IMG/VR virus record: IMGVR_UViG_3300009149_000040
Coordinates: 1-55,008 of that record
Origin: a virus
Lineage: Duplodnaviria > Caudoviricetes
Length of the DNA stretch: 55,008 nucleotides
Direction: 5' to 3' (one strand)
Shown: piece after piece, positions 18,377-54,898 of the stretch
Numbering within the stretch: the first letter of the stretch is position 1
Layout of the letters: each line of letters begins with the position of its first letter
Made by a program: the position numbers and the translations under genes
The notes under the pieces: model-generated
The model's input: only the letters and a program-made list of their open reading frames with translations
Databases searched by the model: none
Told to the model about the DNA's origin: nothing

Positions 18377-19798
18377 TTATTTTCCAAGAGGATTCTTAAC
18401 TCCTCCACCTGCAGGTTGATCTGATTTAGTAGTGTCTTGGCTGGCTCTGTTAAGCAGTTCTAGCAACTCAACAGACACATCTTTTTGTGGTTTCCTGGTA
18501 CGGCGATCCTCTACATTTACAGCTGCTTTGTAAGCTTCCGCTAAAGTTAAATTTGAACTCAAAAGTCCCTTTGCGTTCGCTTCCGTATTAACAAGTAAGG
18601 TCTGGTTACAGATGTTCATACCAGCCTCAAGGAACTTTAGCCTACCTCCAGGCTGCTTATCAAAGATATACTGCATCTGATACGGAGCGTTTATACCGGC
18701 AACCATATGACCAGTTTTTTCATCTATTCCGTAGCGTACCTCTCCGCTATACTGCTCATGGGCTGTAAGTTGTCGAACAGCTCTTTCAATACTAGCTTTA
18801 ATAGATACTTTCTTAGGTGACTTACCAGTTGCTTCGTTTTCTATTTCTTTTATAAAATCTGTGTAGGGAACACCTTGTAGAGTTGTTAGGTAATCTATTA
18901 TCTTTTTCGATTGCGCCATATTTATATAACGGTTCTTCTGCAGCGCTTCAATCATCTGTCTAACTTGTGTGATATCTTGCCAATTTTCTATAGGCTTTTT
19001 ACTGTTCTGGTCAACTCGGTTCTCCCATATGTCAACTAATACAGCTTTTACCCAATCACGTACCACTTCTACATCTGCGCTTTCCTTAGGTATTTCAAGC
19101 CTTTTTTCTGCTCGTACGTCTGATAGACCTTTTTGAAGAAAGCTAACTGCGGATAGTAGTTCATCGTAGTGTCTAGTACTCGGTTCAGCCCCAAAGTAGT
19201 GGTCGCAGAAATCAAATATAACCTGAGATACTGCGAACCCTTTTAAGTGATACCCTAGCCCCTTGTCTATGGCATCCTTGAACCCTTCCCAGAAACTTCC
19301 CCCGGAAGACTCTCCCGCTTTTATCACGTAATCAAATATAACAGATGGATTATTAAACGCACCCTTACCTAGTTCTCCATCAGTAACTACAAAAGATAAC
19401 TCTACCCCATCAGAATCTAAAGAAACAAGAGGCTCGTTTTCTTTGTAAGTTACTTTATGCTTGTCTAGAGTCTTACGTGCATCTGCAGCTGCTTTTTCTA
19501 CGAGGTCATTGGCATCTTTAACATGCTCCGCTACAGGTAGTGGAGGCTGCGCAAAAGGGTTAGCTGCATCTTCACTTTGTGGTTCTTGTCCGCGAGTGTT
19601 AAGCTTCTCTTTAAGCTTTTGCTGCTGCTGCTCTATCTGCTTCTGTCTGGACTCAAATTCTTGTACTGTAAAAAGTGGTTTATCAACAGCTATCTTATAG
19701 ATAGCTCCACGAAACCGTATATTAGTTGGAGGATAGCCCATGGTGCTAGGCGTCTGGATACTCAGTACGGAAGGGACGTTCGGTTCTATACTCGTCAA
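18377..19798 (-). CDS. putative virion protein with hairpin tag
   Basis: PTNIRFRGAIYKIA near the likely start MGYPP. Confidence 0.65.
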   Translation of the reverse strand: MTSIEPNVPSVLSIQTPSTMGYPPTNIRFRGAIYKIAVDKPLFTVQEFESRQKQIEQQQQKLKEKLNTRGQEPQSEDAANPFAQPPLPVAEHVKDANDLVEKAAADARKTLDKHKVTYKENEPLVSLDSDGVELSFVVTDGELGKGAFNNPSVIFDYVIKAGESSGGSFWEGFKDAIDKGLGYHLKGFAVSQVIFDFCDHYFGAEPSTRHYDELLSAVSFLQKGLSDVRAEKRLEIPKESADVEVVRDWVKAVLVDIWENRVDQNSKKPIENWQDITQVRQMIEALQKNRYINMAQSKKIIDYLTTLQGVPYTDFIKEIENEATGKSPKKVSIKASIERAVRQLTAHEQYSGEVRYGIDEKTGHMVAGINAPYQMQYIFDKQPGGRLKFLEAGMNICNQTLLVNTEANAKGLLSSNLTLAEAYKAAVNVEDRRTRKPQKDVSVELLELLNRASQDTTKSDQPAGGGVKNPLGK

Positions 19799-21137
19799 GG
19801 TGATCCAAGTATAGATCCAAAGTGGATTTCTGGAAGAGACCTATCTCTGCCATGTACACAAACAGATCTACCATCTCCTTTTCGTTTAAAGGATGATTTG
19901 GATCTTTTGAGAACATATCGGCAAAGTCGGTAACACTTAGGTTAAGATGTGACGGTTTACCCATCAACTTCTTCTGCTGTTTCAAAATGTATTCACGATA
20001 AAAAGTAAGAGCTAGTTCTTCTTTCTTTTTATCGCGTTTGAAATCTTCTTCTGCAGCCTCACCTACATCATACATATGTGGTCCACTTTCGTAGGGGAGC
20101 ATATCATCAGGATGAGGAACAAAATCTGGAGTGGGGTAGTTTACATAATCTTTAGGTGGCCAATAGCTTTGTGCTCCTGGTCCCTGTTCAGGCTTATGTT
20201 CAAAAGCTGCGGATTTATCTTTTGTGTTGTTCATAGTTTCATCCGTGCTGTAGAAACGAATTGGTGTCTGCCTTACAGTAGGACGCCAAATGGTATCTGT
20301 AATACTAGATGGGTAGTTTGGGTTCCTTGGTAAGAAGGAATCAGGAAGCACCCTAATAGTATGTAAATCAGGGCTTTCCAAACGAATAGGATCATACACT
20401 GTAGGAGTAGGTATACCTAACTCCGAGTTATCGAATCCAGTATACGTGTAGGATAATGGAATATTAACTACTTTAGTAATATCAGAGTCAGGAAGGTAAA
20501 GAACTACACGGATGTTTCCACCCTCTACTGATCTATCTCCATCTTCGTTCTTTTTTACTACAACGGCGCGTTCACCATTAAGGTCGATACCTTGTAGTTC
20601 TGTAACAACCATTCCAGGCTCTAGGGTCTCTACAGTATCTGCGGTCCTGCTACCAAACTCTGCTGTGATATCTACGTAGTCTACATAAGCATCTCGTTGA
20701 AGAGAGGCGAATTCTTCTTGAACATCCACTAGCATCCTACTATCTTTTGGGATATCTTCAGTCAATGGTGGCCACAGCCTTGCGAATTCTTTACTTATTA
20801 TGGACTCCTTCTCAGAGTCTCCTAGACCCAATTTACACATGCATACTTGTATGCGCTTTGGATCTCCACTTTTAGGATCATCTAATTCTACGATTACAGC
20901 AGGGGGCTCAAGTTCAATTTTATCTCCATACTTCCCAGCATGGATAGCGATATCAACTATTTTTCCAGGACCGAGAGGTGTAGTAACCTCTTGTCCTACT
21001 TCCAGCAATGAAACTACTTCATCGCTAGACACGTCAACGTCTTCTCCTGCGTACTTGTACTCTGCGTTTACAACAGAGTCCTCAGGGGAAAGTTCGTAAA
21101 CGTGAGTTCCAACACGTATGTAAAGAGGACGCGGCAT
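19746..21137 (-). CDS. putative virion protein with N-terminal tag
   Basis: PLYIRVGTHVYELS. Confidence 0.65.
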   Translation of the reverse strand: MPRPLYIRVGTHVYELSPEDSVVNAEYKYAGEDVDVSSDEVVSLLEVGQEVTTPLGPGKIVDIAIHAGKYGDKIELEPPAVIVELDDPKSGDPKRIQVCMCKLGLGDSEKESIISKEFARLWPPLTEDIPKDSRMLVDVQEEFASLQRDAYVDYVDITAEFGSRTADTVETLEPGMVVTELQGIDLNGERAVVVKKNEDGDRSVEGGNIRVVLYLPDSDITKVVNIPLSYTYTGFDNSELGIPTPTVYDPIRLESPDLHTIRVLPDSFLPRNPNYPSSITDTIWRPTVRQTPIRFYSTDETMNNTKDKSAAFEHKPEQGPGAQSYWPPKDYVNYPTPDFVPHPDDMLPYESGPHMYDVGEAAEEDFKRDKKKEELALTFYREYILKQQKKLMGKPSHLNLSVTDFADMFSKDPNHPLNEKEMVDLFVYMAEIGLFQKSTLDLYLDHLDEYRTERPFRTEYPDA

Positions 21138-21138
21138 A

Positions 21139-21525
21139 CTATTTCCTTATAGGGCGTAACGCTGCAAGCTCAGCAATAGCGTTTTGATAGTATTTCTCTG
21201 GTCCCTTCCTTGAAAGAACGCGTATTTCTTTAGAGAAATCCGACCTTAACTGTCGTACACTAGAGAGTAACTTCCACAACGACTTCATAATCACATTAGC
21301 GTAAACTGTCTTCAAACTTGTCTTATATGGAATAGGAGATTCCATAACCAGTTGTGCCAGTGCTATTGTGCACGCAAGTACAAAGGCGCGTTTAACAGAT
21401 TCAGATGGAGTAGCAGCTGCGCGTTCCAGCTCCATCGTTAGGTCTTTTATAGACCGTCTGTATTGACGATGGACTACAGGGTTGGTCTGGATAACTTCTT
21501 GTTCTTGCTGGTCAATCTCTGGCAT
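21139..21525 (-). CDS. hypothetical protein
   Basis: 128 aa ORF in a tightly packed operon. Confidence 0.6.
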   Translation of the reverse strand: MPEIDQQEQEVIQTNPVVHRQYRRSIKDLTMELERAAATPSESVKRAFVLACTIALAQLVMESPIPYKTSLKTVYANVIMKSLWKLLSSVRQLRSDFSKEIRVLSRKGPEKYYQNAIAELAALRPIRK

Positions 21526-21532
21526 TTGGTAT

Positions 21533-21844
21533 CTAGTCTACTAGTAGGTACGTAGCCCCTTTGTATTTAAGATACTTTACAGCTTGGGATCCAGGTTCTT
21601 GTACTATCTCGTAAACAAATCCACTAACTTTAATCCGCTTAGGAGGTTGCGCTTCTCCATGCTTACGCCATTGGATTGCACGTTCTTGCTTCTTAGCTGC
21701 CTCTTCATTTGGGTGTCTACCGAGAAGTCTATGCGGTTTACTATGAGTGTACAAACAAACCTTTTGCTCGGACAAAGGACGATCTGGATCAATATCCTTT
21801 TTTCGGCAGTCTTTGATCACTGCTGTTACCAGTTTTGAGGGCAT
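21533..21844 (-). CDS. small protein with CRxKD domain and two tags
   Basis: domain shared with 28445-29536; IKVSGFVY, LKYKGATY. Confidence 0.65.
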   Translation of the reverse strand: MPSKLVTAVIKDCRKKDIDPDRPLSEQKVCLYTHSKPHRLLGRHPNEEAAKKQERAIQWRKHGEAQPPKRIKVSGFVYEIVQEPGSQAVKYLKYKGATYLLVD

Positions 21845-22747
21845 CTATTTAGAGTCCAAAATGTAGTCTACACCTTGAAACTTAATCTTTTTTGGTAGGC
21901 TACTGGACCGTTTTCTAATAGGACGACGAGTTGTGGTTGCACTCTTCCTACGCAGCTCGTTTGTTTTCTTGATGTTTGCTTTATATAGTGTACCACCAAC
22001 AGTGATATACCGTGGGAAACGTACCAGTGTACGTTTGGGATTACCATCTGCAGTCTTAGCGTGTACTTGATCTTGAAGAGCAACATAGTCAGCCGACATA
22101 GCTAGATCTGCAACTTTAGAGCCAAGGTCCTTAAGGTTCATCAACTCTTCAAGAATACTACTTAGCTCCTCTGCTTTACTGGGATCTTTTGAGGATACCT
22201 CTTTTGCTAGTCTATCCCAACCGTGTAACAGTGGAAGAATCCTTCCAAAAACATCCATAAATTCATCTAGCTTAGCTAACGCTTTACCATACGCAGCAGC
22301 TAGTTGTGATCCAATGGAACTGCTATACCGGCTGTATGGATGGTCCATGGGAACTTCATCTTCATAGTCTTCTTCTTCTCTACGTTCTGCTTCCTCTCCA
22401 GGAAGATCACGTCCGTGACCCTCTTCAAAAGGAACTTCTGAAAACTCGCCAACGAACGTACCAAGTATACCAGAGGCATCTTCCCAGAATTTCATAAAGG
22501 TCTTTAGAACTTGATCATCTTCTTTGTCAAGACCCTCTCCAGGAACGTTATCTTGCCTACGTTTCAGCAACTCGTTTGCTGGACCCATCTTAGCCTTATC
22601 AAGAATAGTTATAACTTCAGAAGCGATAGCATGGATATCCCCTGCTACTGCATTGAGCTTTGCTTTGTATTGATCCAAAGAAGTCTCAGCTAAAACATAG
22701 ATGTTTCCTCCAACACGAATAACAGGAGGTTGTGCTGTATCTTTCAT
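21845..22747 (-). CDS. putative virion protein with three tags
   Basis: IRVGGNIY, ITVGGTLY, IKFQGVDY. Confidence 0.65.
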   Translation of the reverse strand: MKDTAQPPVIRVGGNIYVLAETSLDQYKAKLNAVAGDIHAIASEVITILDKAKMGPANELLKRRQDNVPGEGLDKEDDQVLKTFMKFWEDASGILGTFVGEFSEVPFEEGHGRDLPGEEAERREEEDYEDEVPMDHPYSRYSSSIGSQLAAAYGKALAKLDEFMDVFGRILPLLHGWDRLAKEVSSKDPSKAEELSSILEELMNLKDLGSKVADLAMSADYVALQDQVHAKTADGNPKRTLVRFPRYITVGGTLYKANIKKTNELRRKSATTTRRPIRKRSSSLPKKIKFQGVDYILDSK

Positions 22748-22770
22748 ACCAGTGCTCCGTTCAAAATAGG

Positions 22771-23115
22771 TTACGACTTCAACAGGCGAAGTTCATCTTT
22801 TGCTGCTGAGTTGACCGTTCTAGAAAGTCTTTCAATCTCTTCTAGCACACTTATCCAAGGGTCAATCTCCCCTTTGCTATAAGCGTCTTTTAGTTTTTCG
22901 GCCTGATCGGATAGTTGTAACATATACTTACGGATTATGTACAACGAAGGTTTATCTCCCGCGTTAAGTTGTGAGAACTGTGTAATATCTTCTGCGTCGT
23001 CTTCTGCACGGTGCATAGACTTCAACCTAGTTCCACCAGCAGTAGGAGCCTCTGTTTCTACAAGCTCGTAAAGAACATCCCCAACACGGATCCTCTTAGC
23101 AGGAGTTTTGTACAT
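22771..23115 (-). CDS. putative virion protein with N-terminal tag
   Basis: AKRIRVGDVLYELV. Confidence 0.6.
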   Translation of the reverse strand: MYKTPAKRIRVGDVLYELVETEAPTAGGTRLKSMHRAEDDAEDITQFSQLNAGDKPSLYIIRKYMLQLSDQAEKLKDAYSKGEIDPWISVLEEIERLSRTVNSAAKDELRLLKS

Positions 23116-23714
23116 TACTTTTCTCCCTCAGATCTTTCCCAAATTTTTGGTAAAAACCCTCCACGTTGCAACCACTCGTCTAATCCCAAAAAGTATCCTG
23201 CCATCTCTACGGCGGCGTCACTTTCGTTTTCGTCATCCACAATAGAGTTAGCAAGCTCTTGTACTTTACGTAGAGCTACTTCAGGATCCATTGCTAGCTT
23301 GTAGATATGGTTCCCTACTTTTATCATTTTTGGAGGTTTAGTACTCATGGAAGCTTCTTTCTTACTAGCGTTAGCGTCCCAAAACTTGTCTGCGTTTTGC
23401 AGAGCAAGCTCCATTCTTCTACGCCCTACTGGATTAGCAGAGTGTACATTCCAAACTATACGAGGTACGGTTCCATCGAAAGCCTGACGTTCAATCCATA
23501 CTGCGACATCGTATCCAGTACCAACGTCTATACCTACATCAGATCCTTCCCCCAAATCATGATCCAGTGATACTTCGGATACTTTTCCAGATTTAAGAAG
23601 TCGGATAGCATCTTGTGCGGTTTTGACATGAACGTCAAATCCTGGGGGTGCAGGCCGAATGTCATCTAGCCATAAACGCATAATGTATCCCCGCTTAAAC
23701 TTCCTCTTCTTCAT
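23115..23714 (-). CDS. cyclic-phosphate-processing receiver-like domain fused to a tagged module
   Basis: LWLDDIRPAP, VSLDHDLG, GYDVAVWIE, VHSANPVG; then PKMIKVGNHIYKLA. Confidence 0.75.
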   Translation of the reverse strand: MKKRKFKRGYIMRLWLDDIRPAPPGFDVHVKTAQDAIRLLKSGKVSEVSLDHDLGEGSDVGIDVGTGYDVAVWIERQAFDGTVPRIVWNVHSANPVGRRRMELALQNADKFWDANASKKEASMSTKPPKMIKVGNHIYKLAMDPEVALRKVQELANSIVDDENESDAAVEMAGYFLGLDEWLQRGGFLPKIWERSEGEK

Positions 23715-24246
23715 CCTTTTTCTTAAGGCGCTCTCTAGCTATTTCTAGATTAGTTTCCTCACGAAAAGACTTCTCAAGTTCATCATCAGTAGTAACAGGA
23801 CGGAAATCCTTCGCACCGATTTTCTGTTTTTCTACATTCGCGTTGAATAACTTCTGGTCAAGAAGACCGTACTTAACAGCAATGTCAGCAGCAGCTGACA
23901 TATACTGATGTACCACTTCAACGTTTCCTAAAGCTATAGCAAGCTGCTCATTAAAAGTTGCTATCCGATCCCAAAGTTCTTCTTTGGTAAGAAGACCCTC
24001 TTCCTTAAGATCAAGGACATCACGGATACCAGTTTTCCTGAAATAAGCTAGCCCCAACGCACGTTCAATATCGCCTACAAGACCAACTGACTCATCAAGA
24101 GCAGTCAACAATGGCTTGAAACGACGAGAAGTGTATTCTTTAACGGCTTTTGACAGGTAGATACTATTAGGATCTACGTCGGCACGTACGTAATCTGCAC
24201 CACGAAATCGGATCCTGTAAGGAACCTTCTTTTTCGTCTGGGCCAT
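23695..24246 (-). CDS. putative virion protein with N-terminal tag
   Basis: PYRIRFRGADYVRA. Confidence 0.6.
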   Translation of the reverse strand: MAQTKKKVPYRIRFRGADYVRADVDPNSIYLSKAVKEYTSRRFKPLLTALDESVGLVGDIERALGLAYFRKTGIRDVLDLKEEGLLTKEELWDRIATFNEQLAIALGNVEVVHQYMSAAADIAVKYGLLDQKLFNANVEKQKIGAKDFRPVTTDDELEKSFREETNLEIARERLKKKDEEEEV

Positions 24247-24258
24247 AACGCTCTCCAG

Positions 24259-25071
24259 TTACACAGCTTTAATTAGGCCAGTGAGTTCTTCAATATGCTC
24301 AAGGGCGTCTCTTTTTAAACTGGCTTTCACGCCACCCTCTAAATCTTTTTTACCGAGTTGCTTAACAGCGATATTCAATGATATCATCTCATTTTGGATA
24401 GCTATACCATGAGCTGCCAACTTATAGATTACCCCACCAACACGAATAACTTGAGGGGGTGTGTTCTTCTTTGTCATCTTTAAGGTCTCCTTACTAACTG
24501 AGGATTGTTTTTTAGGTGTCCACACTGGACGTTCTGAACGAAGAATTTTCATAGGATCGAGGTCGAATTCCCAACGTTTGAGCATGTTCTTAATGCCTTC
24601 AACAGGGACTCCATGTACAGTCTTACTTACAAGAGTTTCTGCCAACTCTTGCAACTCTTCTTCCGACATATTGGGCTTAAAGTTATTCCACCAAGGAGAT
24701 TCAGGTTCTACAATCTCTACGTCGTAACCTTCTGTCATACCGATTACTACGTAAGGCTTGGCTTCCCAACCTTGTGTAGTTGTGTTATCAACTACAATTG
24801 GTGTGATCCCCTTATGTGCAGCATCCCATACGCGCTTCTGATTCCACTTATGTGCTTCTTGTAGCTTGGTAGGATTGAAGTTGTACTCCTCCCCTTCCAT
24901 GAAGAAGTCATCTGTGGAAAATACTTTACCAGATCCAGCTAACTGCTTAGCCTTTGTGGACTTACCGGATCCAGATACTCCACGCATGATATACATCTTC
25001 TTAGGAGCATCCGCTAAACGGTAAACTTGTCCTTTAACCTTGATATACTTTGGTAGAGATTTAGTAGTCAT
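24259..25071 (-). CDS. N4BP2-like P-loop polynucleotide kinase (AAA_33) flanked by two tags
   Basis: MRGVSGSGKST, FSTDDFF, AHKWNQ, IVVDNT, HGVP. Confidence 0.8.
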   Translation of the reverse strand: MTTKSLPKYIKVKGQVYRLADAPKKMYIMRGVSGSGKSTKAKQLAGSGKVFSTDDFFMEGEEYNFNPTKLQEAHKWNQKRVWDAAHKGITPIVVDNTTTQGWEAKPYVVIGMTEGYDVEIVEPESPWWNNFKPNMSEEELQELAETLVSKTVHGVPVEGIKNMLKRWEFDLDPMKILRSERPVWTPKKQSSVSKETLKMTKKNTPPQVIRVGGVIYKLAAHGIAIQNEMISLNIAVKQLGKKDLEGGVKASLKRDALEHIEELTGLIKAV

Positions 25072-25073
25072 GG

Positions 25074-26099
25074 TTAACGCCTAGGACTGATAATATCAAG
25101 TTCTTTTAAGAAAAGGCTAACAGCGTTGCCTTGACTTACACCAACAGAATCTAGGTTTTGTTTTTGTACTTCCTTAATAGCATCCAAAATACTAGAAAGA
25201 GACGTCGACTTACCTAAAAATACCTCACGTACGAATTTTTCACCACTAGGCCCGGCTCTAAGTGCTTCTAGTACTGTGTGTATTAGTTCACTGGGTGCGA
25301 TATCTTTTCCACGAACAGCAGGATCTTTTCTGGGATACGGCTTGCCATCCTCAGCGTAACCTATGTCCGGAAACTCTAAACCAGTATCTTCATCTAGATT
25401 ATAGCCCGCTGCACGTCTGTACAGATGGCCTTTAACCTTGATATACTTTGGTTTTACAGAAGCACCATAGTAAAGAGGCTCTTCCGGTTCGTCTTCCTTG
25501 GGCCTAAATTCTTCAGGTTCCTCTTTAGAAATAAACTGTAGAAACTCAACAAGATTTTTAAATGATTCTACAGCATATTCTACCTTGCCAGCAATCTGGC
25601 TGGGTAGATCGTGGATAGGTAGCTCATCTTTAATCTCGTTTGCACGGACTACCTCGTGTTTCAGATCCGCTAGTACATTATGTACTAGTTCTTGTACCAC
25701 TCTTTTATCTTCTGGATTAATTGCGGGGTACTCATCCAGTGATAGATTACCTGCTGCAACGCCCCTCTGCTGTCGGAGTATTGGAGGTGTAACAGAGACA
25801 GGACGCTTAGCGTCCTGGCGACCAGGCCGTTCTTTTCCTACAGCGTTTTTAAGCTCTACCCAAGAACGGTGTGCAGCTTCCCATAAACTACGAAGCATAC
25901 TTTCTAATTCTGTTGGAAGGTTATTTCCTATATTTTGTACGGCATCAGCAACAAAGTTTAGAGTGTCCCCTATTTCTCTAGAAGCATACCATAGTTCGTA
26001 AATAAACTTATCTTTATCTTTGAGGTAGTCTTCTTTACGATCTGCAATTTTATAAACACGTCCATTGACCTTGATGCGTGCAGGAAGATTTCCCATCAT
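25074..26099 (-). CDS. putative virion protein with two tags
   Basis: PARIKVNGRVYKIA, PKYIKVKGHLYRRA. Confidence 0.65.
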   Translation of the reverse strand: MMGNLPARIKVNGRVYKIADRKEDYLKDKDKFIYELWYASREIGDTLNFVADAVQNIGNNLPTELESMLRSLWEAAHRSWVELKNAVGKERPGRQDAKRPVSVTPPILRQQRGVAAGNLSLDEYPAINPEDKRVVQELVHNVLADLKHEVVRANEIKDELPIHDLPSQIAGKVEYAVESFKNLVEFLQFISKEEPEEFRPKEDEPEEPLYYGASVKPKYIKVKGHLYRRAAGYNLDEDTGLEFPDIGYAEDGKPYPRKDPAVRGKDIAPSELIHTVLEALRAGPSGEKFVREVFLGKSTSLSSILDAIKEVQKQNLDSVGVSQGNAVSLFLKELDIISPRR

Positions 26100-33427: not shown

Positions 33428-33464
33428 GGATAAAATCCCTGTGCAGCGAGTTGGTAATAAGAAA

Positions 33465-33503
33465 TTAATGTGTGGGGGAGGTATTCCCTCCCCCACACAT
33501 TAA
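33465..33503 (-). terminator. strong hairpin after scaffold gene
   Basis: 17-bp perfect inverted repeat ttaatgtgtgggggagg/cctcccccacacattaa. Confidence 0.8.
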
Positions 33504-47087: not shown

Positions 47088-48086
47088 TTATCGTTGCCTA
47101 GTATACCGGTAACCTTTGTACTCTATAACATCTGCTACAACACTAGACACTTTTTTTGCCTTTGGTCCGCCAGGAACTGTAGCATTAGCATCCTCATCAA
47201 TTGCGTTAGTAGGAGAATCGTCTCTAACCTGCTTTTTAGTAGGAAGCTCTTGCGTCTCAACATCATCACGCTTAGAAGGAGTTGAAACTGGGGTGTCATC
47301 TACTTTTTTCAGTTTACCTTCTTGTTTCAATTTAATCAACTGCTGTGCATTGGCTGAAACCGCATCCTCCATTGCTCCTTGTAACACATCATAGATAGTC
47401 CCATTCCAATTACGAAGAGCGTGTTCACCAATAGATTTAGCTACTAAGGTGGGGGTTTCACTGAATATAATCATAAGGTCAGTGAGTTCTAATTCGTTGA
47501 AATCAGGACTATACTTCTGTATTAAACTACTTATAGGAGTATTTGGATCTTTTTGTAGAAGTGGTTGAAGCAGTTTGATGTACCCAATTGTTTCTCTAAG
47601 TAGTCTGTCCCCTTTATAAGGAAGGTCTACGTCAGAAAGAACTGCGGCTTCTTTAGCGGTATAAAAGGGCATTACGCCAAGAAACTTATACCAATTTGCT
47701 GTAACAGATGCGGCTTTACTTGGAGAGCGTTCTTGCTTCCACCACCTCTCGGCTTCTGTCATCAGAATTTTGTCAACAGCTGCACTGATTATGTTCATAA
47801 GGGACAAATTTTCTGATATTTGTCCCTTATTATCAAAAATCTCATTTATATGTGAGTATCCGATAGATGGATTATGTAGAAGTAACCGATGTATAAGATC
47901 TAAATCAGCGTAGTCAAACCTAAATGAGGTAAGCTCTTCGCGTATATCTTTTGCTGGATCTTTAGCATTCGCAGGAATATCAGAAACACGTGTCTTGATG
48001 AACTTCTCAATTAGCTTACGTAGATCACCACTGTAACTAAGTGACTTTCCTCTACCAGATTCTTTAATTCGAGTACTAACAGCCAT
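47088..48086 (-). CDS. putative virion protein with C-terminal tag
   Basis: DVIEYKGYRYTRQR; start moved below the hairpin. Confidence 0.6.
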   Translation of the reverse strand: MAVSTRIKESGRGKSLSYSGDLRKLIEKFIKTRVSDIPANAKDPAKDIREELTSFRFDYADLDLIHRLLLHNPSIGYSHINEIFDNKGQISENLSLMNIISAAVDKILMTEAERWWKQERSPSKAASVTANWYKFLGVMPFYTAKEAAVLSDVDLPYKGDRLLRETIGYIKLLQPLLQKDPNTPISSLIQKYSPDFNELELTDLMIIFSETPTLVAKSIGEHALRNWNGTIYDVLQGAMEDAVSANAQQLIKLKQEGKLKKVDDTPVSTPSKRDDVETQELPTKKQVRDDSPTNAIDEDANATVPGGPKAKKVSSVVADVIEYKGYRYTRQR

Positions 48087-48115
48087 GTTACAGAATCCTA
48101 AAACAAAGTGTATGA

Positions 48116-48152
48116 GTACAGGGTGGTATAGGTTATCTGTACCACCCTGTAC
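48116..48152 (-). terminator. hairpin/terminator
   Basis: gtacagggtggta...taccaccctgtac perfect 13-bp stem. Confidence 0.65.
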
Positions 48153-48197
48153 CATACACAGGATTTACGCTGTATCCCAGGTGTCTACAGTAGACTA

Positions 48198-48626: not shown

Positions 48627-48804
48627 TTTCGTTCGCTCCTAAATGATGGGTTCTATTACCCACGCTAAAAAAGACGCAAGTATGACACCAGGGTTAAACT
48701 ACACTATATAGTAACAATAATTTAGGAGTGATGGAGAAAAGAAAACGAATGCAGATTTTTGAAAGATCTTCGGACAGAAAATCTTAATAGAAAGGAACTA
48801 TGTG

Positions 48805-49836
48805 CTAGATATCGAAAGACTTTGCCAACTTCCAACCTCTCTTCTCGTCCCAGCCCTCGTTTACTACCAAGGATACGTATAGAACCTTCTCAGAAGACTG
48901 GTCTACCGCTACCTGTCCAAAAAATTGGTCGTTTTTTAAAGTCTTAAGCGACGTACGCTCTTTTGTCTCAACCGCTTCCGCAACAAAATCATCCTCAAGC
49001 AACTCGCGTACTTGCGCCTTAGCAATAGTATCCTGCTCCAAATCTGATTTTGCCAAAGCAGTACACAAAGAATCCATGTCAGACAAGTCAACTAGCTGCA
49101 GCGGTGCCCGAGTCTTCATGACATTCTTAGTGTTCAAACGCATCTTGGATGCCATAATTGCAGCAGAACCATAGCATACACGCACCAAAGGTTCCCAAAT
49201 TGTACGCCAATACTCAGCAGAAGGTGCACGTTCAACACCTACTACAGTACCATTGATTAAGACTATTGCCCCAACCTGGTTATCGATAAGCTCGAACTCA
49301 GCAATAAACTCATCCAATTGACGTTCATAATTCTGCAGGTAGTTAACCAAGTTACGATCTGTTCCAAGACCATTCTCATTAGAAAGTTTACCAATGGACC
49401 CCCATAGTTTGTTGTAACTACGATTACCGCGCATCTCTAACGCAGGACGTCTAAGGGCTAAGGGAAGAATCAAAAGCTTATGAGCATCTTCTGAAATTGC
49501 CCCAGGCTGTGTGGCTTGAATACACATAGCGTCATCAAACTTACGACGGCTCTTCCCCGGAACGATTGCCGCAGTAGTCATAGCATGATCCTGTGCAGAC
49601 TGCTTTACTACGTAACCAACGTTAGTTGGTATCAAAACCGGCTTAGAATCGGGGTTTGAAAAATTCATCACCCCATAATCGCTAGTACCAACACGAACGA
49701 TATCAGGGTTAGCAAACCGGTAGTCCTGCAGTTCATCTTCCATAATTAGTGGAATTACCTGCATAGACCCTACAGTCTGAATACGGCCAACTTCGCAACC
49801 ACGAAGAATTTCACGAATTGTTGTTTTCATAGTCAC
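48805..49836 (-). CDS. ARPP-1/DUF6569-like protein
   Basis: MQVIPL, AQDHAM, AMCIQATQPG, EFE...NQVGAIVLING.VVGVE. Confidence 0.6.
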   Translation of the reverse strand: MTMKTTIREILRGCEVGRIQTVGSMQVIPLIMEDELQDYRFANPDIVRVGTSDYGVMNFSNPDSKPVLIPTNVGYVVKQSAQDHAMTTAAIVPGKSRRKFDDAMCIQATQPGAISEDAHKLLILPLALRRPALEMRGNRSYNKLWGSIGKLSNENGLGTDRNLVNYLQNYERQLDEFIAEFELIDNQVGAIVLINGTVVGVERAPSAEYWRTIWEPLVRVCYGSAAIMASKMRLNTKNVMKTRAPLQLVDLSDMDSLCTALAKSDLEQDTIAKAQVRELLEDDFVAEAVETKERTSLKTLKNDQFFGQVAVDQSSEKVLYVSLVVNEGWDEKRGWKLAKSFDI

Positions 49837-49841
49837 ACCTC

Positions 49842-51983
49842 CTACCTAGACAGAATAGTGGCTGTCTGACGCCCAATATCCGTATGCTTAACAAAGTCTG
49901 CCCCAGCAACTTTTACAAGACCACGTCTGCCTAGCGCACTGACGGTACTTTCATTTATAATACCATGGAACTTAACAAGACCACGTTTGTCCGGAGTGGC
50001 TCTGTAAAGCTCAATCATCGCAGTGGCCATTGGAGGAGAAAGCACCTTTGCAGCCTCCGCTGCTGCTTTAGATGGTTTACCACCAGTGGACAACTTACGT
50101 GGAGTGGTAGCCTCCTGAAGCGCCTTTTTACCAGTAAGTGCATCTAGCATCAAAGCACGTGCTTGCTTAAGCAGCGCACGAACCCCTGCCAGGGGATCCT
50201 GTTCCATAGCCTCACGTAGCAAAGAAGCTCCAAAGGCACTTGGATTCTGAACAGGCATCGTAGGTACGATACCTGGAGCAAGTTGCCTAACGGAAGCGGT
50301 CTCTGCCGCTGCAACAGGGTTAAGGTGATAAATCGGAATAGTAATCCCAATTTTTCTAACTGCCCTAACCGTCTCTGCAAATCTCCCCGCAGGAGTATTC
50401 TCGTAACCATCCGAGATTACGTACACCGCAGTTGGATTGTGGTCCCGAATTGCTTTTGCAAAGGGGAGTGCCAAAGACGTATCCCCAGATGGAAATACCA
50501 TCCTACCTTTTCCCTTACCTCCGACGATTACTGCCTTAGCACCTGCGGCAATAAACATATCGCGCATCGCCAAAGCAGTAGCCATTGGACGCAGCTTCTG
50601 CGTCTGGTCACCAAACATAGACCTAGAAGCATCTACTAGAACAACAGCACCGTCACAATCAATAGGCAGTTGTGCTGCAGATTTACGTGCTTTCTCGTCC
50701 AAAGCTTTACGAATGTTATCGTCTAGTTTACGCTCAAAAGCATATAGGTACAGACGAGTAGCATCGTAGCTGTTTGGATCAAAGGTAATAGTTACTCCAG
50801 CTTTCTCAGCACGAGTTTGTACTTGGATCTTCTGCTTCGCGGTCATTGACCCCGATTTTGCAGAGATCTTTACAATCTCTTCCTTCTTCGTACCTTTGTG
50901 GTAAACAGAACGAATACCTTCCAGTACTTCTGGAGGAAGAGTTTTTCCAGCAGCCAAATCTGTTCTAGCCGCAATATACGACTGAAACAGTGGACGCGAC
51001 CACTCTTCTTTAGAAGACCCTCTAGAGATAACAAAAGCTACACATTCGCAAACGGTTGCCAAATCGTTTGCTCCCAAGTAGGGTACTACCTGAGTCTGTA
51101 AAATTTGTTTTTCTTTTGGTCCTAAAACGGTGTTTGCTCCGTTATCTGCAAATCTACGTCCAAGTGTATGAATGGTACTTGCAAGACGCTTTCCCCACGC
51201 GTGCTTCAATGCACGTTGCATCTTACGTCGATATTTTACCGACCACCATTCAATGTTAGGAGAGCTTAGAATAGCGCTCAACATAACACGTCTAGTACGG
51301 CTGTTGTTACATCCACTATCCAATAGCATCTCAAAGAGCTGGAACATTCTTGGAACAGTAATACTCTGTACTAGAGCCTTTACCAGCTCTCGTTCCCCTT
51401 CCAGCTCTGTCTGGGTTGGAGTTCCGTTATCCGGCCACTCCAACAGAAACCAGCAGACAAGCTTCCGCGCATTATCTGTTAGTCCTGAAAGACACGACAG
51501 AATTCCGTAAGTCTGGCGGTCTACGTTAAACATGGCAGCATGTGCCAAGCGTTCAGCTTTGATCTGGTCTTCTTTGGTATTATAGTGCGTTCCACGCCCC
51601 ATACCGGTTGTAGCAATATCCAGGAAGCTAGATACTACTCTACCGATAATGCGCTGCTCACGCATGTTTAAACCAAGGTCCTCCTTACGAAGAAGACGAG
51701 TGGCCAACTTAGGCACAGAAGGGATGCTATACTGCTCACAGTAAACTCCCTGCTTGTCTGCTGCAGCCACTAGCGAGTCAACCGCCTCGGTATCTGTGAC
51801 CACATACCCGTCAAGTACCTTCCCATCAGGACCAGGAACTGAGTTAAGCCCAGGTTCCACAGAAATACCGATCTGCAGTCCAAGCTTAACTCCCTTATCG
51901 GTGTTTTCAAGGAAGATTACTTGCGAGATGGCACGGGTGCCCATCAGCCTACGCAGCTCTGTTGTTTGTAGTCCCTTACGCAT
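49842..51983 (-). CDS. TROVE/Ro60-like helical + vWA protein
   Basis: long helical domain followed by vWA MIDAS (VLVDASRSM, GDTSL, VISDGYEN); RBS ggagg before MRKGL at 51983; adjacent tRNA-mimic RNAs. Confidence 0.65.
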   Translation of the reverse strand: MRKGLQTTELRRLMGTRAISQVIFLENTDKGVKLGLQIGISVEPGLNSVPGPDGKVLDGYVVTDTEAVDSLVAAADKQGVYCEQYSIPSVPKLATRLLRKEDLGLNMREQRIIGRVVSSFLDIATTGMGRGTHYNTKEDQIKAERLAHAAMFNVDRQTYGILSCLSGLTDNARKLVCWFLLEWPDNGTPTQTELEGERELVKALVQSITVPRMFQLFEMLLDSGCNNSRTRRVMLSAILSSPNIEWWSVKYRRKMQRALKHAWGKRLASTIHTLGRRFADNGANTVLGPKEKQILQTQVVPYLGANDLATVCECVAFVISRGSSKEEWSRPLFQSYIAARTDLAAGKTLPPEVLEGIRSVYHKGTKKEEIVKISAKSGSMTAKQKIQVQTRAEKAGVTITFDPNSYDATRLYLYAFERKLDDNIRKALDEKARKSAAQLPIDCDGAVVLVDASRSMFGDQTQKLRPMATALAMRDMFIAAGAKAVIVGGKGKGRMVFPSGDTSLALPFAKAIRDHNPTAVYVISDGYENTPAGRFAETVRAVRKIGITIPIYHLNPVAAAETASVRQLAPGIVPTMPVQNPSAFGASLLREAMEQDPLAGVRALLKQARALMLDALTGKKALQEATTPRKLSTGGKPSKAAAEAAKVLSPPMATAMIELYRATPDKRGLVKFHGIINESTVSALGRRGLVKVAGADFVKHTDIGRQTATILSR

Positions 51984-52015
51984 TTTAGAGGCCTCCATTT
52001 GTAGATACAAAAATA

Positions 52016-52037
52016 AAGGGCTCACGGAGGAGCCCTT
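52016..52037 (-). terminator. hairpin + T-run between the RNA cluster and the TROVE-like gene
   Basis: aagggctc/gagccctt followed by tattttt on the - strand. Confidence 0.6.
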
Positions 52038-52060
52038 ATCCGAAATAATCAAAAAAAGAA

Positions 52061-52184
52061 TACGAGGAAATTTGAAGGTCAGTAAAGTTGTGAAATACGG
52101 GACTTGAACCCGCAACCTCTTCATTATGGGTGAAGCGCTCTAACCAAGTGAGCTAATTTCTGTAACGACCTTACCGTCCTCGTA
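52061..52184 (-). ncRNA. Y-RNA-like tRNA mimic (CAT anticodon loop)
   Basis: terminal stem tacgagga/tcctcgta, inner aaggtc/gacctt, enclosing D arm, cttca-cccataa-tgaag and gcggg-ttcaagt-cccgt; no CCA end. Confidence 0.7.
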
Positions 52185-52197
52185 CATTGATATTAAA

Positions 52198-52346
52198 TTT
52201 GAGGAAATGTGAGAGCAAAGAGTTGACATTTTTTAAATGCCGGATCTATATTCCGGTGCCTTAACCATTTGGCTACTTCCCCGTATATGGGGAAGCTAGG
52301 ATTCGAACCTAGATATTTGTTCTGTACTTGCTCTGCAGTCCTCAAA
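52198..52346 (-). ncRNA. Y-RNA-like circularly permuted tRNA mimic
   Basis: same outer stems enclosing T arm (ctagg ttcgaat cctag), loop-closed acceptor stem cttcccc-atatac-ggggaag, D arm, anticodon arm. Confidence 0.75.
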
Positions 52347-52374
52347 ATCTTGTGTTCTATCAAAAACTAAAAAA

Positions 52375-52515
52375 TGAATAAAGGAAATGCGGAAGTAAAG
52401 TGATGAAGTTACAAGGAGCAGGATTTGAACCCGCGACCTTCGGTGTGCAATACCGACGCTCAACCAACTGAGCTATCATTGTGTTTTCTGTACTTACTTC
52501 ACCGTCCTCTATTCA
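52375..52515 (-). ncRNA. Y-RNA-like tRNA mimic (TGC anticodon loop)
   Basis: tgaatagagga/tcctttattca stem, gaagtaa/ttacttc, enclosing tagctcagttggttgagc, tcggt-attgcac-accga, gcggg-ttcaaat-cctgc. Confidence 0.7.
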
Positions 52516-52542
52516 AATCGTGATTCCTTGTTGTCTGCTCCT

Positions 52543-52570
52543 ATTATAAGCATCTATAGCCTACTGTCAA
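52543..52570 (-). promoter_or_regulatory. consensus sigma70 promoter TTGACA-N16-TATAAT
   Basis: tgtcaa 52565-70 and attata 52543-48, ~25 nt upstream of the first RNA unit. Confidence 0.75.
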
Positions 52571-52616
52571 TACCTTTTTAGGGGCTCTAACACTATTTTC
52601 TGCTTACCAAGTCTAC

Positions 52617-52829
52617 CTAAAGAGGAGTGTCTGTTTTATCTTCTGTCAACGCAGAAAGCCACTCTTTAGCCTCTGCAATGCTTGCCTTTAAACCACGTAC
52701 ATCCCTTCTAGCGCGTACCACAACTGCTTTAGCTTTAGTTACGCGAGCTTCTGCTTTGCGGAGGTCTCCTTCTAGACCTTTGAGTAGCGTAGTTTGCTCA
52801 GTAATCTTCTTTTCCTTAACTGACATCAA
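52617..52829 (-). CDS. small coiled-coil protein
   Basis: RBS aggagg, heptads. Confidence 0.55.
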   Translation of the reverse strand: MMSVKEKKITEQTTLLKGLEGDLRKAEARVTKAKAVVVRARRDVRGLKASIAEAKEWLSALTEDKTDTPL

Positions 52830-53104
52830 ATCCTCCTAACGAGTCCTTTGCAGAGTTCTAGTAGGCTTCCCAACATACTCTGTGTATCCTGCTTAAACGG
52901 TATACTCAATTGTGCATAAAAAACTTCTACACGTATACCCAAACGCTCTGATTTTTCATTCGCGGCAGCTAGTGCCTCGTCGTAATCTAGGAAAACTGCT
53001 GGAGCATTTCCATTATCCGCCATAGCCCTATCTATAGGTGGGGCGTTTCCCATGTGACGTAGACCAATAAAAAATACTGTATGCTCCCAACTTCCGTTTT
53101 CCAT
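52826..53104 (-). CDS. hypothetical protein
   Basis: 92 aa ORF overlapping the next start. Confidence 0.5.
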   Translation of the reverse strand: MENGSWEHTVFFIGLRHMGNAPPIDRAMADNGNAPAVFLDYDEALAAANEKSERLGIRVEVFYAQLSIPFKQDTQSMLGSLLELCKGLVRRI

Positions 53105-53134
53105 TTGGCCCCGTCTATAACTTAGATAAAAGGT

Positions 53135-53467
53135 CTAAGATGGTAACAGTTTGTATACACTTCCTTTATACTCAATATAAGTAGCTGGTGCCACACTGGC
53201 CTCTTTCTCTTTTACAGTTTCCTTAGCTTCTTTTTCCATTGTTGCCAGGCGGTCATAATAATCTGCAAATTCGTTTAGATGTGCTAGAGCGATCTTTGCG
53301 GTCGTGACAGGGTCATCATCGGTGACGTTGGTATCTTTGCTACGGGTACCATGCTCAAGCTCAACGTCCATACCCTTAGCTAGATCGGAGGAAGAGAACT
53401 TCAATTTGTCCCAATCCAACCCTAGTTCTTCTGCTACTGCTTCGGCGTCTTTTTTAGAAAATCCCAT
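53135..53467 (-). CDS. DUF5661-like protein with C-terminal tag
   Basis: KGMDVELEH...AKIALAHLNE..DYYDRL; TYIEYKGSVYKLL. Confidence 0.7.
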   Translation of the reverse strand: MGFSKKDAEAVAEELGLDWDKLKFSSSDLAKGMDVELEHGTRSKDTNVTDDDPVTTAKIALAHLNEFADYYDRLATMEKEAKETVKEKEASVAPATYIEYKGSVYKLLPS

Positions 53468-53572
53468 AGTAGGTCTCCAAGTTTGTGAATGGTTGTAGTG
53501 CTATATAGTAGTAACATACTACTAATCTTTACAACTTTCAACTTGGTTGTAGACCAAACTACTTGTAGAATA

Positions 53573-53647
53573 TAGCTACGAGTGGATTCGAACCACCAAC
53601 ATTACGCCCCTCAAGCGTACGCCTCTAGCCAATTGGGCCACGTAGCC
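53573..53647 (-). tRNA. tRNA-Leu(GAG), short variable loop, no encoded CCA
   Basis: ggctacg/cgtagct acceptor, tacgc-ttgaggg-gcgta, ggtgg-ttcgaat-ccact, A73. Confidence 0.8.
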
Positions 53648-53651
53648 ATAA

Positions 53652-53725
53652 TGCCCTCGCTGAGATTTGAACTCAGAAATCACGGCTCTGAACCGTGCAC
53701 CTTTAGCCAGTTAGGTCACGAGGGC
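53652..53725 (-). tRNA. tRNA-Leu(CAG), short variable loop, no encoded CCA
   Basis: gccctcg/cgagggc acceptor, cacgg-ttcagag-ccgtg, ctgag-ttcaaat-ctcag, A73. Confidence 0.85.
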
Positions 53726-53795
53726 CTGATGAATCCAGTAGATGACACAAAATATTTATCTGTCAAGAAGAAGCTAAGCTTAGTTACTATATTAC

Positions 53796-54434
53796 ATGAA
53801 AACACGAACAATAAAATACAATGGTAGTTTGTATACTCGGGTAGCATATACTAACGAAGATTTGTTAACCTATGAGCAAATACGTATGAGAGGGGCAGTA
53901 GAAATAGGTGACGCCTATGGTCCAGATAATAAATGGAACCCAGGATGGGCAGACATAGATGGCAAAAAATTTGCTCATGTAGACGCTTTAGATGAAAGTA
54001 TGCGGCCAATACAGCAATTTCTTCGAGTGGACAATTTAGAAGGGTGGAGATGGGAATGGATGGAAGGGCACACACAAGAAGATGTAATCGAGATGTTCGA
54101 AAGTTATAACGAAGCTAAGCGTAGGCAGAAAAATGGTAGTACATATACGCTTGCAGAAGATACCAGTAATACTAATCTCGTTGTCAAATATATAATACGT
54201 GAATCTGGATGGATGCACGATCTCCTAGAAGAAGCTAAAAGTCAAAACAGCCGCTTCAGGGACATACTAAAAGAAGTAGTAACAGAAGATCTCTTGAGGA
54301 AGGTTCCAAAAGTTAGCGGAGCTGCTGAAGAACTGATGAACAGATCTTTGAAAGACCTGTTAAAGTATGTTAATTGGAATGTGGTGGCCAAAAGAGCAAA
54401 AGCAATAGCAGAAGAAGATTACGGGATGGTCTGA
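53796..54434 (+). CDS. putative virion protein with N-terminal tag
   Basis: TRTIKYNGSLYTRVA. Confidence 0.6.
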   Translation: MKTRTIKYNGSLYTRVAYTNEDLLTYEQIRMRGAVEIGDAYGPDNKWNPGWADIDGKKFAHVDALDESMRPIQQFLRVDNLEGWRWEWMEGHTQEDVIEMFESYNEAKRRQKNGSTYTLAEDTSNTNLVVKYIIRESGWMHDLLEEAKSQNSRFRDILKEVVTEDLLRKVPKVSGAAEELMNRSLKDLLKYVNWNVVAKRAKAIAEEDYGMV

Positions 54435-54436
54435 GA

Positions 54437-54898
54437 TTAGATCACAGGTCCCCTTCCAACACCCGGCTCTACCGCCTGCCAAAACCCCGCAAACCTAACT
54501 GGTATCGTTTCCATTTCAAGCTCTTTCGCAATCCAGAGACGATGGTTCCCTTCTCCCAGCTTGGCGACACCGTTTTTGCCAAAGATCATCAAAGCGGGCT
54601 CATCCTCATCCCACCCCCACACCTTCATACTTTTACTAAGCTCCGCCCATTGTTCGTCTGTCTTCATACTATCCTTATCAGGAACACGATCATACTCACG
54701 GTACTTCCAAACTTCTTCAAGTGGATACTCAACCGTAAAAGAGCCCCACCGATCAGGACGTTCATCGTCAAGTGCCCATTTCTTAGCCACTTCTTCGATG
54801 GAGAGAGGGTTCTCAGTATCGAAATCGTAGTGGTCGTAGAAAGCACGTACGTACAGTTGGCCTCTATGTTTAACGTATTTTCCATACATCTTAGGCAC
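54437..54898 (-). CDS. ParB/Srx-like domain protein with N-terminal tag
   Basis: LGEGNHRLWIAKELEMETIPV; GKYVKHRGQLYVRA. Confidence 0.7.
   Translation of the reverse strand: MPKMYGKYVKHRGQLYVRAFYDHYDFDTENPLSIEEVAKKWALDDERPDRWGSFTVEYPLEEVWKYREYDRVPDKDSMKTDEQWAELSKSMKVWGWDEDEPALMIFGKNGVAKLGEGNHRLWIAKELEMETIPVRFAGFWQAVEPGVGRGPVI

Follow-up and report, generated by a model that had tools for sequence, protein, structure and literature searches.

In IMG/VR viral record IMGVR_UViG_3300009149_000040, a stretch of 55,008 bases (hereafter the window), a peptide of about 14 residues recurs in proteins that are otherwise unrelated to one another. This tag is a previously undescribed, clade-wide and portable hairpin peptide. 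Given its low-complexity flanks, its placement at either end of unrelated proteins and its invariant I, G and Y residues, it is best explained as a shared docking peptide for one conserved partner. Targeting of the tagged proteins to the capsid is the best available reading, and on the circumstantial evidence set out below we give it a probability of about 0.45; the tag is probably a new variant of the capsid-targeting idea.

A hairpin peptide shared by unrelated proteins

A preliminary description of the window had proposed about 24 hairpin tags in 19 proteins. When its consensus was written as a strict regular expression, 12 matches were found in the six-frame translation, all in minus-strand frames, whereas 500 shuffles of the 85 called open reading frame (ORF) products averaged 0.028 matches, with one at most. 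With those 12 copies as its seed, a profile detected nine more at an independent E-value (i-E) below 0.1 (mean 0.03 and maximum 1 in 30 shuffles), and the iterated profile reached 22 copies in 17 of the 85 called ORFs, the next matches having E-values of at least 0.14. The iterated profile was trained on its own copies, and the independent support is the shuffle test of the 12-copy profile. The profile search of the window proteome that had been suggested as a check is thus in agreement with the original claim, with 22 copies and about 0.03 expected from shuffles, and all nine of the peptides first quoted were recovered by the regular expression and the profiles. Three weaker look-alikes, at the C-terminus of 47088-48155, at a second site in 53796-54434 and at a site in 16783-18114, would bring the count to about 24 in 19 proteins. 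The clear copies are located as follows:

26028-26093, minus strand: N-terminus (residues 3-24) of ORF 25074-26099
25395-25460, minus strand: internal (residues 214-235) in ORF 25074-26099
24997-25062, minus strand: N-terminus of ORF 24259-25071 (polynucleotide-kinase-like)
24400-24465, minus strand: residues 203-224 of ORF 24259-25071
24166-24231, minus strand: N-terminus of ORF 23695-24246
23277-23342, minus strand: residues 125-146 of ORF 23115-23714, after the cREC_REC domain (residues 12-106)
23044-23109, minus strand: N-terminus of ORF 22771-23115
22673-22738, minus strand: N-terminus of ORF 21845-22747 (three tags)
21959-22024, minus strand: residues 242-263 of ORF 21845-22747
21848-21904, minus strand: C-terminus of ORF 21845-22747
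21587-21652, minus strand: residues 65-86 of ORF 21533-21844, first of a tandem pair
21536-21589, minus strand: C-terminus of ORF 21533-21844, second of the tandem pair
21072-21137, minus strand: N-terminus of ORF 19746-21137
19673-19738, minus strand: residues 21-42 of ORF 18377-19798, called from the longest start
29988-30053, minus strand: internal (residues 141-162) in ORF 29517-30473
32528-32593, minus strand: N-terminus of ORF 31754-32605, which directly follows the prohead protease gene
35617-35682, minus strand: near the N-terminus of the small ORF 35464-35730, between the portal and protease genes
36516-36581, minus strand: N-terminus of the acidic ORF 36168-36581, just downstream of the portal gene
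46157-46222, minus strand: residues 289-310 of ORF 45944-47086 (MTPAP-like nucleotidyltransferase)
53138-53194, minus strand: C-terminus of ORF 53135-53467 (DUF5661)
53796-53861, plus strand: N-terminus of ORF 53796-54434, the sole plus-strand copy
54827-54892, minus strand: N-terminus of ORF 54437-54898

Twelve copies are N-terminal, three C-terminal and seven internal; thirteen proteins carry one, three carry two and one carries three, consistent with the sites and the one to three copies per protein first reported. The carriers had been supposed to be unrelated, and no pair among the 17 is similar outside the tag at E<1e-3. The near-absence from the early block was also borne out, since tags are confined to 17 of the 49 ORFs above 15.4 kb and are missing from all 36 below it (Fisher p=2e-5).

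The 22 clear copies in the window conform to the consensus [P]-P-x-x-I-[KR]-[VYF]-x-G-x-x-Y-x-[LR]-A, and the 91 non-redundant copies from the window and its relatives to [PLA]-P-x-x-I-[RK]-[VYF]-[KNR]-G-x-x-Y-x-[LR]-[AV]. Among the latter, Y is invariant, G is present in 87 and I in 72, and the following positions are weakly enriched in A, E and D. Sub-clades have variant forms of the core, namely I-K-V-N-G, I-x-Y-K-G and F-I-R-V-N-G. At the nucleotide level, the 42-nt core has a median pairwise identity of 48% and the third codon positions of the conserved residues are almost free of information (17 of the 22 copies analysed), which indicates selection on the peptide and not on the DNA; with synonymous positions free to vary, a role of the repeat as DNA was rejected. 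The exception is the pair of copies at 25031-25054 and 25429-25452, which share 24 identical nucleotides, as had been correctly noted. The tag profile retrieved a single match, at E 3.4, from 177,635 distinct PDB sequences. Neither Pfam nor PHROGs has a family that spans the tag positions of the window proteins, although such profile libraries are weak on 14-residue motifs. No description of the tag was found in full-text literature searches or in a look-up of terms in PMC7824862, the main comparative paper on jumbo phages.

AlphaFold2 was run on two alignments, those of the kinase-like protein 24259-25071 and of the DUF5661 protein 53135-53467. All three tags modelled were predicted as two-stranded beta-hairpins lying outside the folded domains, with the [KN]-G pair as the turn, in keeping with the earlier guess of a hairpin. 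In the kinase model (mean predicted local distance difference test score, pLDDT, 83.8), the N-terminal tag forms strands 9-12 and 15-18 in a block of pLDDT 69-79, and the second tag forms strands 208-211 and 214-217 at pLDDT below 50. The DUF5661 model (mean pLDDT 84.5) comprises a four-helix domain followed by a hairpin of strands 97-100 and 103-106, at pLDDT 66-71; a Foldseek search with this domain-plus-tag model gave no match in the PDB at E<=0.001.

By sequence and model, the product of ORF 24259-25071 is polynucleotide-kinase-like. It matches the P-loop kinase domain AAA_33 (PF13671, E 2.7e-9, 37.9 bits for a cut-off of 27), and residues 22-177 of the model superpose on the Clostridium thermocellum (C. 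thermocellum) polynucleotide kinase 4gp7 with a Z-score of 14.3 (root-mean-square deviation 2.6 A, 139 residues aligned) and on T4 polynucleotide kinase with a Z-score of 12.9 (2.6 A, 134 aligned). The kinase core begins at residue 22, after the tag, and in nearly every row of the structural alignment the tags fall beyond the aligned residues. The other recognisable carriers are 23115-23714, with cREC_REC (PF20274, 88.8 bits, cut-off 27), 53135-53467, with DUF5661 (PF18905, 60.7 bits, cut-off 27), and 45944-47086, whose match to MTPAP-like nucleotidyltransferases lies below the Pfam cut-off. Many tagged proteins are acidic overall. In the cREC protein, residues 142-196, which follow the tag, match PHROG 865 and PHROG 5411, both annotated as 'HNH endonuclease' (E 6e-14 and 3e-10), and no Pfam HNH domain was reported over these residues.

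Distribution and mobility within the clade

The window is estimated to be 16% complete, so that the whole genome would measure about 350 kb. Capsid proteins with 77-100% identity to that of the window are encoded by 12 IMG/VR loci, in which 90 tag matches were found; L008 and L009, like L010 and L011, are near-duplicates. One of these loci belongs to a complete genome of 349,793 bp with terminal repeats (G001), in which 33 matches are spread over 26 of 514 called ORFs, or 22 copies over 21 ORFs at a stricter threshold. The matches cluster at 5-9, 174-181, 219-221, 259-261, 276-293 (the head module) and 345-349 kb. The block from 10 to 170 kb has a single weak match. In it are encoded the largest proteins, the tail sheath, the UvsX-like recombinase, SbcCD, the clamp loader, ribonucleotide reductase, the DNA polymerase, helicases, primase and topoisomerase II. 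None of these named proteins is tagged, nor is the ligase of G001; the scan covered 80 proteins of at least 200 residues (four crossing a locus boundary were left out). G001 also encodes, at 220491-221996 (L026:491-1993), a eukaryotic-type topoisomerase I catalytic core (PF01028, E 3e-12) with a weak N-terminal tag (i-E 0.027).

Outside these loci, degenerate DNA patterns for two tag variants retrieved from IMG/VR only contigs of this clade and one match in an unrelated 72-kb viral contig; as that record has no other copies, the match was set aside as chance. A search of 1.84 billion representative proteins with the tag profile yielded 99 proteins at E<=0.001 and ten at E<=1e-10. A single tag cannot reach significance in a library of this size, and most of the matches therefore have two to five tags. 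Among those scanned, 90 of 98 have no Pfam family and 31 of 33 no PHROG match, and the ten that were looked up come from metagenomes only. They include a sigma factor with five tags (P0060) and DUF5661 proteins. Probable false positives are the MucBP surface proteins P0061, P0091 and P0092 and the odd proteins P0070 and P0084.

The multi-tag relatives bear two to five tags at the N-terminus, in the middle and at the C-terminus, separated by low-complexity linkers or in tandem three residues apart, and they carry long lysine-rich tracts. A module of the form 'KGW...C...IDDPGAFC...WR.EPRKK' follows such tracts in G001 (286991-287968, or L029:6991-7965) and in L003, L005, L008, L009 and L013, and also occurs in P0064, P0068, P0083, P0090 and P0106. 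Its hosts are multi-tag proteins, DUF5661-tag proteins just downstream of the capsid gene and the L003 orthologue of an acidic 624-residue protein; no instance of it was found in the window. A tblastn search of cultured phages with the lysine-rich module at the C-terminus of one tagged G001 protein gave no match. A second module, C-R-x-K-D-I-D-P...E-Q-K-x-C-x-Y, is common to the N-terminal 60 residues of tagged 21533-21844 and to untagged 28445-29536 (residues 297-316, at the C-terminus), a head-module protein conserved in the clade, and it recurs in the 606-residue tagged G001 protein 288800-290620 (blastp E 2.7e-5 and 1.4e-7).

The preliminary description had pictured a portable element spreading onto unrelated proteins, and comparison of orthologues agrees with this through gain, loss and fusion, beside the lack of similarity outside the tag. 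The tag is kept in orthologues of 35464-35730, where its residues are invariant in five of five aligned sequences, of 31754-32605 and of 29517-30473. Shorter orthologues of the last, in L003, L004 and L013, start at the tag, and the C-terminal part of 25074-26099 matches a stand-alone N-tagged ORF of 153 residues in L008 and L009; two internal copies can therefore be understood as fusion points of N-tagged ORFs. ORFs 24259-25071, 23695-24246, 22771-23115 and 21845-22747 have no homologue in any related locus, and the relatives have tagged genes of their own there. The cREC and DUF5661 domains belong to separate proteins in the window, but L003 and L004 have a single tagged protein that combines them.

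The ten closest distinct metagenomic homologues of the kinase that were inspected (P0003-P0010, P0012 and P0014; 53-72% identity to the window protein) have an N-terminal tag placed 3-6 residues before the P-loop strand, and homologues at 55% identity or less mostly have none. Conservation of the peptide spans lineages that differ by about 20% in their capsid proteins and by about 40% in their kinase homologues. Just before the P-loop strand, the untagged homologues P0019, P0025, P0028, P0031 and P0034 have a short start resembling W-Y-K or W-x-x-[FY], which may be a different leader in other phage lineages.

Capsid targeting and competing explanations

The first 15.4 kb of the window consist of plus-strand genes, including those for RuvC, an HNH endonuclease, a pyruvoyl arginine decarboxylase and a NikA-like protein. 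Beyond that point nearly all genes are on the minus strand, among them the head module, whose principal genes carry no tag:

26225-27385, minus strand: major capsid protein (phrog_2522, E 1.2e-44; PDB 6wkk_A, E 1.2e-6), candidate receptor
27394-28152, minus strand: beta-rich 'virion structural protein' (phrog_16710), directly upstream of the capsid gene
32615-33496, minus strand: prohead maturation protease (phrog_18299, E 4e-48)
33513-35387, minus strand: very acidic protein of 624 residues (isoelectric point 4.2, 25% D+E)
36590-38944, minus strand: portal protein (phrog_16240, E 6e-85)
39439-41763, minus strand: large terminase (PHROG match and cultured relatives)

The capsid protein is HK97-like by its PHROG and PDB profile matches; 6wkk_A is titled 'Gp27 major capsid protein', and we take it to be the phage G capsid. 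The terminase and the capsid protein have relatives of 27-30% identity in 95 cultured jumbo-phage records (PaBG, Lu11, Motura, BcepSauron and Erwinia phages among them), and the beta-rich gene occupies the same position next to the capsid gene in cultured relatives. By composition and position, the acidic 624-residue protein may be scaffold-like. Sequence searches of the PDB returned nothing for it, for the beta-rich protein or for the protease; NCBIfam gave nothing useful on 12 head-region proteins, and a Protein Atlas look-up of 31757-32605 no usable match. In G001 the capsid protein has two distant paralogues, with 26% and 23% identity, whose genes at 201946-203028 (L025:1946-3028) and 232243-233223 (L026:12243-13223) lie a long way from the head genes.

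Of the ten genes that directly follow the capsid gene, nine carry the tag and one, 21139-21525, does not; four of the 11 genes between the portal and capsid genes carry it as well. These tagged genes share the orientation of the head genes and lie close against them. Outside the two groups, the tag occurs in ORFs 45944-47086, 53135-53467, 53796-54434 and 54437-54898. The tag was absent from all six cultured distant relatives tested, and in two such relatives three small genes, and after them tail genes, come behind the capsid gene. Since there is no such array after the capsid gene in these cultured relatives, the tagged array is a clade-specific expansion.

We propose that the peptide forms, or folds on binding into, a two-stranded hairpin (x-I-[KR]-[VYF], a [KN]-G turn, then x-x-Y-x-[LR]-A) with one hydrophobic face (I, V/Y, Y, L) and another that is mixed and basic. 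A clade of uncultured phages of about 350 kb adds this tag, mostly at the N-terminus, to many unrelated proteins that turn over fast. The tagged proteins would dock on one conserved receptor in the prohead, which may be the capsid protein, a scaffold or core protein or a clade-specific protein of the head module, and would be enclosed in the head and delivered with the DNA. Candidate receptors are the hexamer of the capsid protein, the C-terminal domain of the acidic 624-residue protein (about residues 345-560), 30999-31736, the portal and the conserved, clade-specific head-module proteins 28445-29536, 30467-31024 and 35706-36128. Enzymes with one tag would be clients, proteins with two to five tags would bind with avidity or cross-link, and some N-terminal tags would be clipped by the prohead protease. 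The existence of the tag, its selection as a peptide, its portability, its modelled hairpin, its spread in the clade and its genomic associations are observed, whereas the common partner, its place in the prohead and the clipping of some N-terminal tags are inferred. The cargo would be consistent with proteins made beforehand and injected, namely the polynucleotide-kinase-like enzyme, cREC, the nucleotidyltransferase and the five-tag sigma factor of a metagenomic relative.

Four arguments for capsid targeting are the strongest. First, conserved tags are found on small proteins inside the portal-protease-capsid module. Second, a variable tagged array lies beside the capsid gene, mirroring the T-even internal proteins, which are described in a passage of PMC3012670 as diverse and sharing only a targeting sequence. 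Third, the replication and tail-sheath proteins are devoid of the tag. Fourth, Faecalibacterium phage Roos provides a link between DUF5661, a recurrent tagged domain, and a prohead protease. The one match of this domain among cultured phages (tblastn, 42% identity, E 2e-4) is to the N-terminus of a Roos protein encoded between the portal and capsid genes, the rest of that ORF being a Peptidase_S78 prohead protease; Pfam DUF5661 was not called in the Roos protein at E<=0.01. Protease-type motifs are also mildly enriched after the tag: [AGS]-x-E occurs in tag columns 16-22 of 15 of 87 tags, compared with 6.5% of background 7-mers (about 2.6-fold), and L-x-E at columns 16-18 of 14 of 87. According to a passage of PMC10052503, A-X-E is the site of the SPN3US prohead protease, and SPN3US propeptides measure 20 and 24 residues.

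Several observations weigh against capsid targeting. The protease-type motifs just mentioned follow the tag in a minority of copies only. Ten of the 22 window copies are internal or C-terminal, unlike the N-terminal, cleaved signal of T4. The tag is missing from the orthologues of 19746-21137 in seven of seven loci, from those of 18377-19798 in five of five and from those of 36168-36581 in eight of nine (L012 alone keeps it), and the one G001 orthologue of the nucleotidyltransferase 45944-47086 is without it; packaging would then be dispensable or lineage-specific for those proteins. The concentration of tags around the head genes, stated in the preliminary description, stands in the window and fails in G001, where about 11 of the 26 tagged ORFs are in the head region at 276-293 kb and the remainder lie near genes of DNA metabolism or of unknown function. 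In addition, the sigma factor, the topoisomerase-IB-like protein with its weak tag and the nucleic-acid enzymes would fit a DNA or transcription hub equally well. A complex prediction of the tag (residues 1-34 of 35467-35688) with the capsid protein, the prohead protease and the beta-rich protein, made without controls, scored 0.21 and 0.00 for a mark of 0.32, a result that speaks on neither side of the question; the acidic 624-residue protein, the scaffold-like 30999-31736, the portal and clade-specific head-module proteins were left out of it. The original idea of an address for head packaging thus keeps the support of the head-gene context, the variable array and the untagged replication and sheath proteins, and is weakened by loss in orthologues, by the distant G001 islands and by the C-terminal and internal copies.

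The likeliest alternative places the docking site on a hub other than the capsid, such as the transcription machinery of the host or the phage, an AAA+ unfoldase or chaperone, or a phage compartment within the cell. Clustering with the head genes would then merely reflect where accessory late genes accumulate, and we judge this rather unlikely. It would accommodate the majority of G001 tagged ORFs that lie away from the head module, the free gain and loss of the tag among orthologues, and the nature of such carriers as the sigma factor, the weakly tagged topoisomerase-IB-like protein, the polynucleotide-kinase-like protein, cREC and the nucleotidyltransferase. However, the core proteins of replication, recombination and nucleotide metabolism, which would need the same DNA-centred hub, are untagged in G001, the conserved small proteins within the portal-protease-capsid module are tagged, and DUF5661 is tied elsewhere to a prohead protease.

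The hairpins could instead bind each other, needing no receptor of another kind, and build a multivalent network or condensate such as an inner body or a viral factory. An amphipathic hairpin could extend a sheet edge to edge, and many relatives have two to five tags per protein with low-complexity linkers and tandem copies three residues apart, a layout repeated in the window by 21845 (three tags) and 21533 (the tandem pair). Single copies nevertheless dominate, in 13 of 17 window proteins and in 20 of 21 in G001 at the strict threshold, and a fixed pocket would account equally well for the strictly conserved I, G and Y of the different lineages; self-association is in our view quite improbable.

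We consider it very improbable that the hairpin is a small nucleic-acid-binding element tethering enzymes and basic proteins to phage DNA or RNA. One face is rich in K and R, several tagged proteins act on nucleic acids and the multi-tag relatives have their lysine-rich tracts, but the invariant residues are hydrophobic or in the turn (I, G, Y) and not basic, the PDB search with the tag profile produced only its match at E 3.4, the replication proteins are untagged and many tagged proteins are acidic overall. Least probable is a tag without a common partner, either a neutral or stabilising terminal cap or a conserved junction for the shuffling of modules by recombination: internal tags at the fusion points of once separate ORFs, the copy pair with 24 identical nucleotides and the recombination of cREC and DUF5661 beside tags among relatives would suit it, whereas nearly free third codon positions and a median nucleotide identity of 48% leave little DNA homology for recombination, and maintenance of the peptide across the lineages compared above argues for selection on a specific function. 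As no replication protein is tagged, a clamp- or replisome-binding motif was rejected and a signal of the nuclear-import type was judged unlikely.

Returning to capsid targeting, its most ambitious form would be a sorting code, in which a single prohead receptor reads a 14-residue tag pasted on either end of any protein and the phage carries a swappable payload of about 20-30 injected proteins. The payload would comprise the sigma factor, RNA-end-repair enzymes and cyclic-phosphate enzymes, and the lysine-rich proteins with three to five tags would form an internal matrix. We regard this joint proposal as unlikely.

Other features of the region touch the tag less directly. Scans for promoters and terminators over 17.5-37 kb gave no excess compared with shuffles and did not define transcription units. 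A perfect 17-bp stem-loop with a T-rich tail lies at 33465-33503 (minus strand), between the acidic 624-residue gene and the protease gene. Its overlap with the longest possible start of the protease makes a start site further downstream probable. The pyruvoyl-dependent arginine decarboxylase of the early block (PF01862, E 2e-25) is encoded at 3570-4157 (plus strand). Downstream of the tagged nucleotidyltransferase gene, an ARPP-1 domain protein (48805-49836, minus strand; PF20208, E 5e-30) adjoins a basic protein of 760 residues with a weak VWA_CoxE match (49842-52124, minus strand). Four tRNA genes (Met-CAT, Ala-TGC, Leu-GAG and Leu-CAG) are located in 52090-53725 (minus strand), and the called ORF 53582-53827 (plus strand), which overlaps both tRNA-Leu genes, is probably no gene.

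Relation to known systems and significance

By analogy, the tag appears closest to the capsid-targeting sequence of T4, the packaging signal of P1 DarB or the cargo-loading peptides of encapsulins, and would be assignable to none of them. The T4 signal is N-terminal and is cleaved by the prohead protease, and we know of no sequence resemblance between it and the tag. Common to both is a short peptide carried by otherwise diverse, fast-evolving proteins of one phage, in T4 the internal proteins IPI-III and Alt (passages of PMC3012670 and PMC9024508). The likeness extends to the predominance of the N-terminal position (12 of 22 copies), to genes alongside or near the head genes, to the acidic or protease-type motifs that often follow the tag and to a cargo that plausibly acts at the start of the next infection. 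This tag differs in its length of about 14 residues, its modelled beta-hairpin, its occurrence at C-terminal (three) and internal (seven) positions where T4 is strictly N-terminal, its presence in up to five copies per protein and its frequent loss in orthologues.

To our knowledge, neither sequence nor predicted hairpin is shared with the signal of P1 DarB. That signal is an N-terminal packaging signal on an anti-defence enzyme, and its first 30 residues load a reporter into the head, according to a passage of PMC9024508. An N-terminal signal that brings an enzyme into the head is the common trait, packaging being a proposal in the present case; the DarB signal is known from one protein and is not a family-wide motif. 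Encapsulin cargo-loading peptides bind the inside of an HK97-fold shell. These targeting peptides, the subject of PMC10960027, PMC8346489 and PMC11866011, are short and terminal, sit on unrelated enzymes and direct the cargo to the shell interior. The tag resembles them in being short and terminal, at either protein end, on unrelated enzymes, and the capsid protein of the window is HK97-like. It differs in its consensus, in the dozens of cargo species per genome and in the multi-tag proteins; moreover, the shell gene of the window sits in a full head module with portal, protease and terminase, unlike an encapsulin operon. Choline-binding and clostridial CROP domains are long, regular arrays of beta-hairpin repeats on cell-surface proteins. 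They have in common with the tag a short hairpin, an aromatic residue three positions after the turn glycine and occasional tandem arrangement, whereas single copies dominate here and no Pfam repeat family was matched.

Apart from T4 and P1, little is known of how giant phages choose the dozens of proteins that go into the head and are injected. In a complete genome of about 350 kb the tag marks about 4-5% of the ORFs, in the window 20% of those called, and it provides a list of candidate injected proteins that includes the polynucleotide-kinase-like enzyme, cREC, the nucleotidyltransferase and the sigma factor, as well as a minimal peptide for the loading of reporters. Should the sorting code be true, the phage would already possess, in tag plus receptor, a loading system for very large capsids that is defined by sequence. 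Whatever the mechanism, the tag marks fast-evolving accessory proteins, possibly with anti-defence roles, in uncultured jumbo phages.

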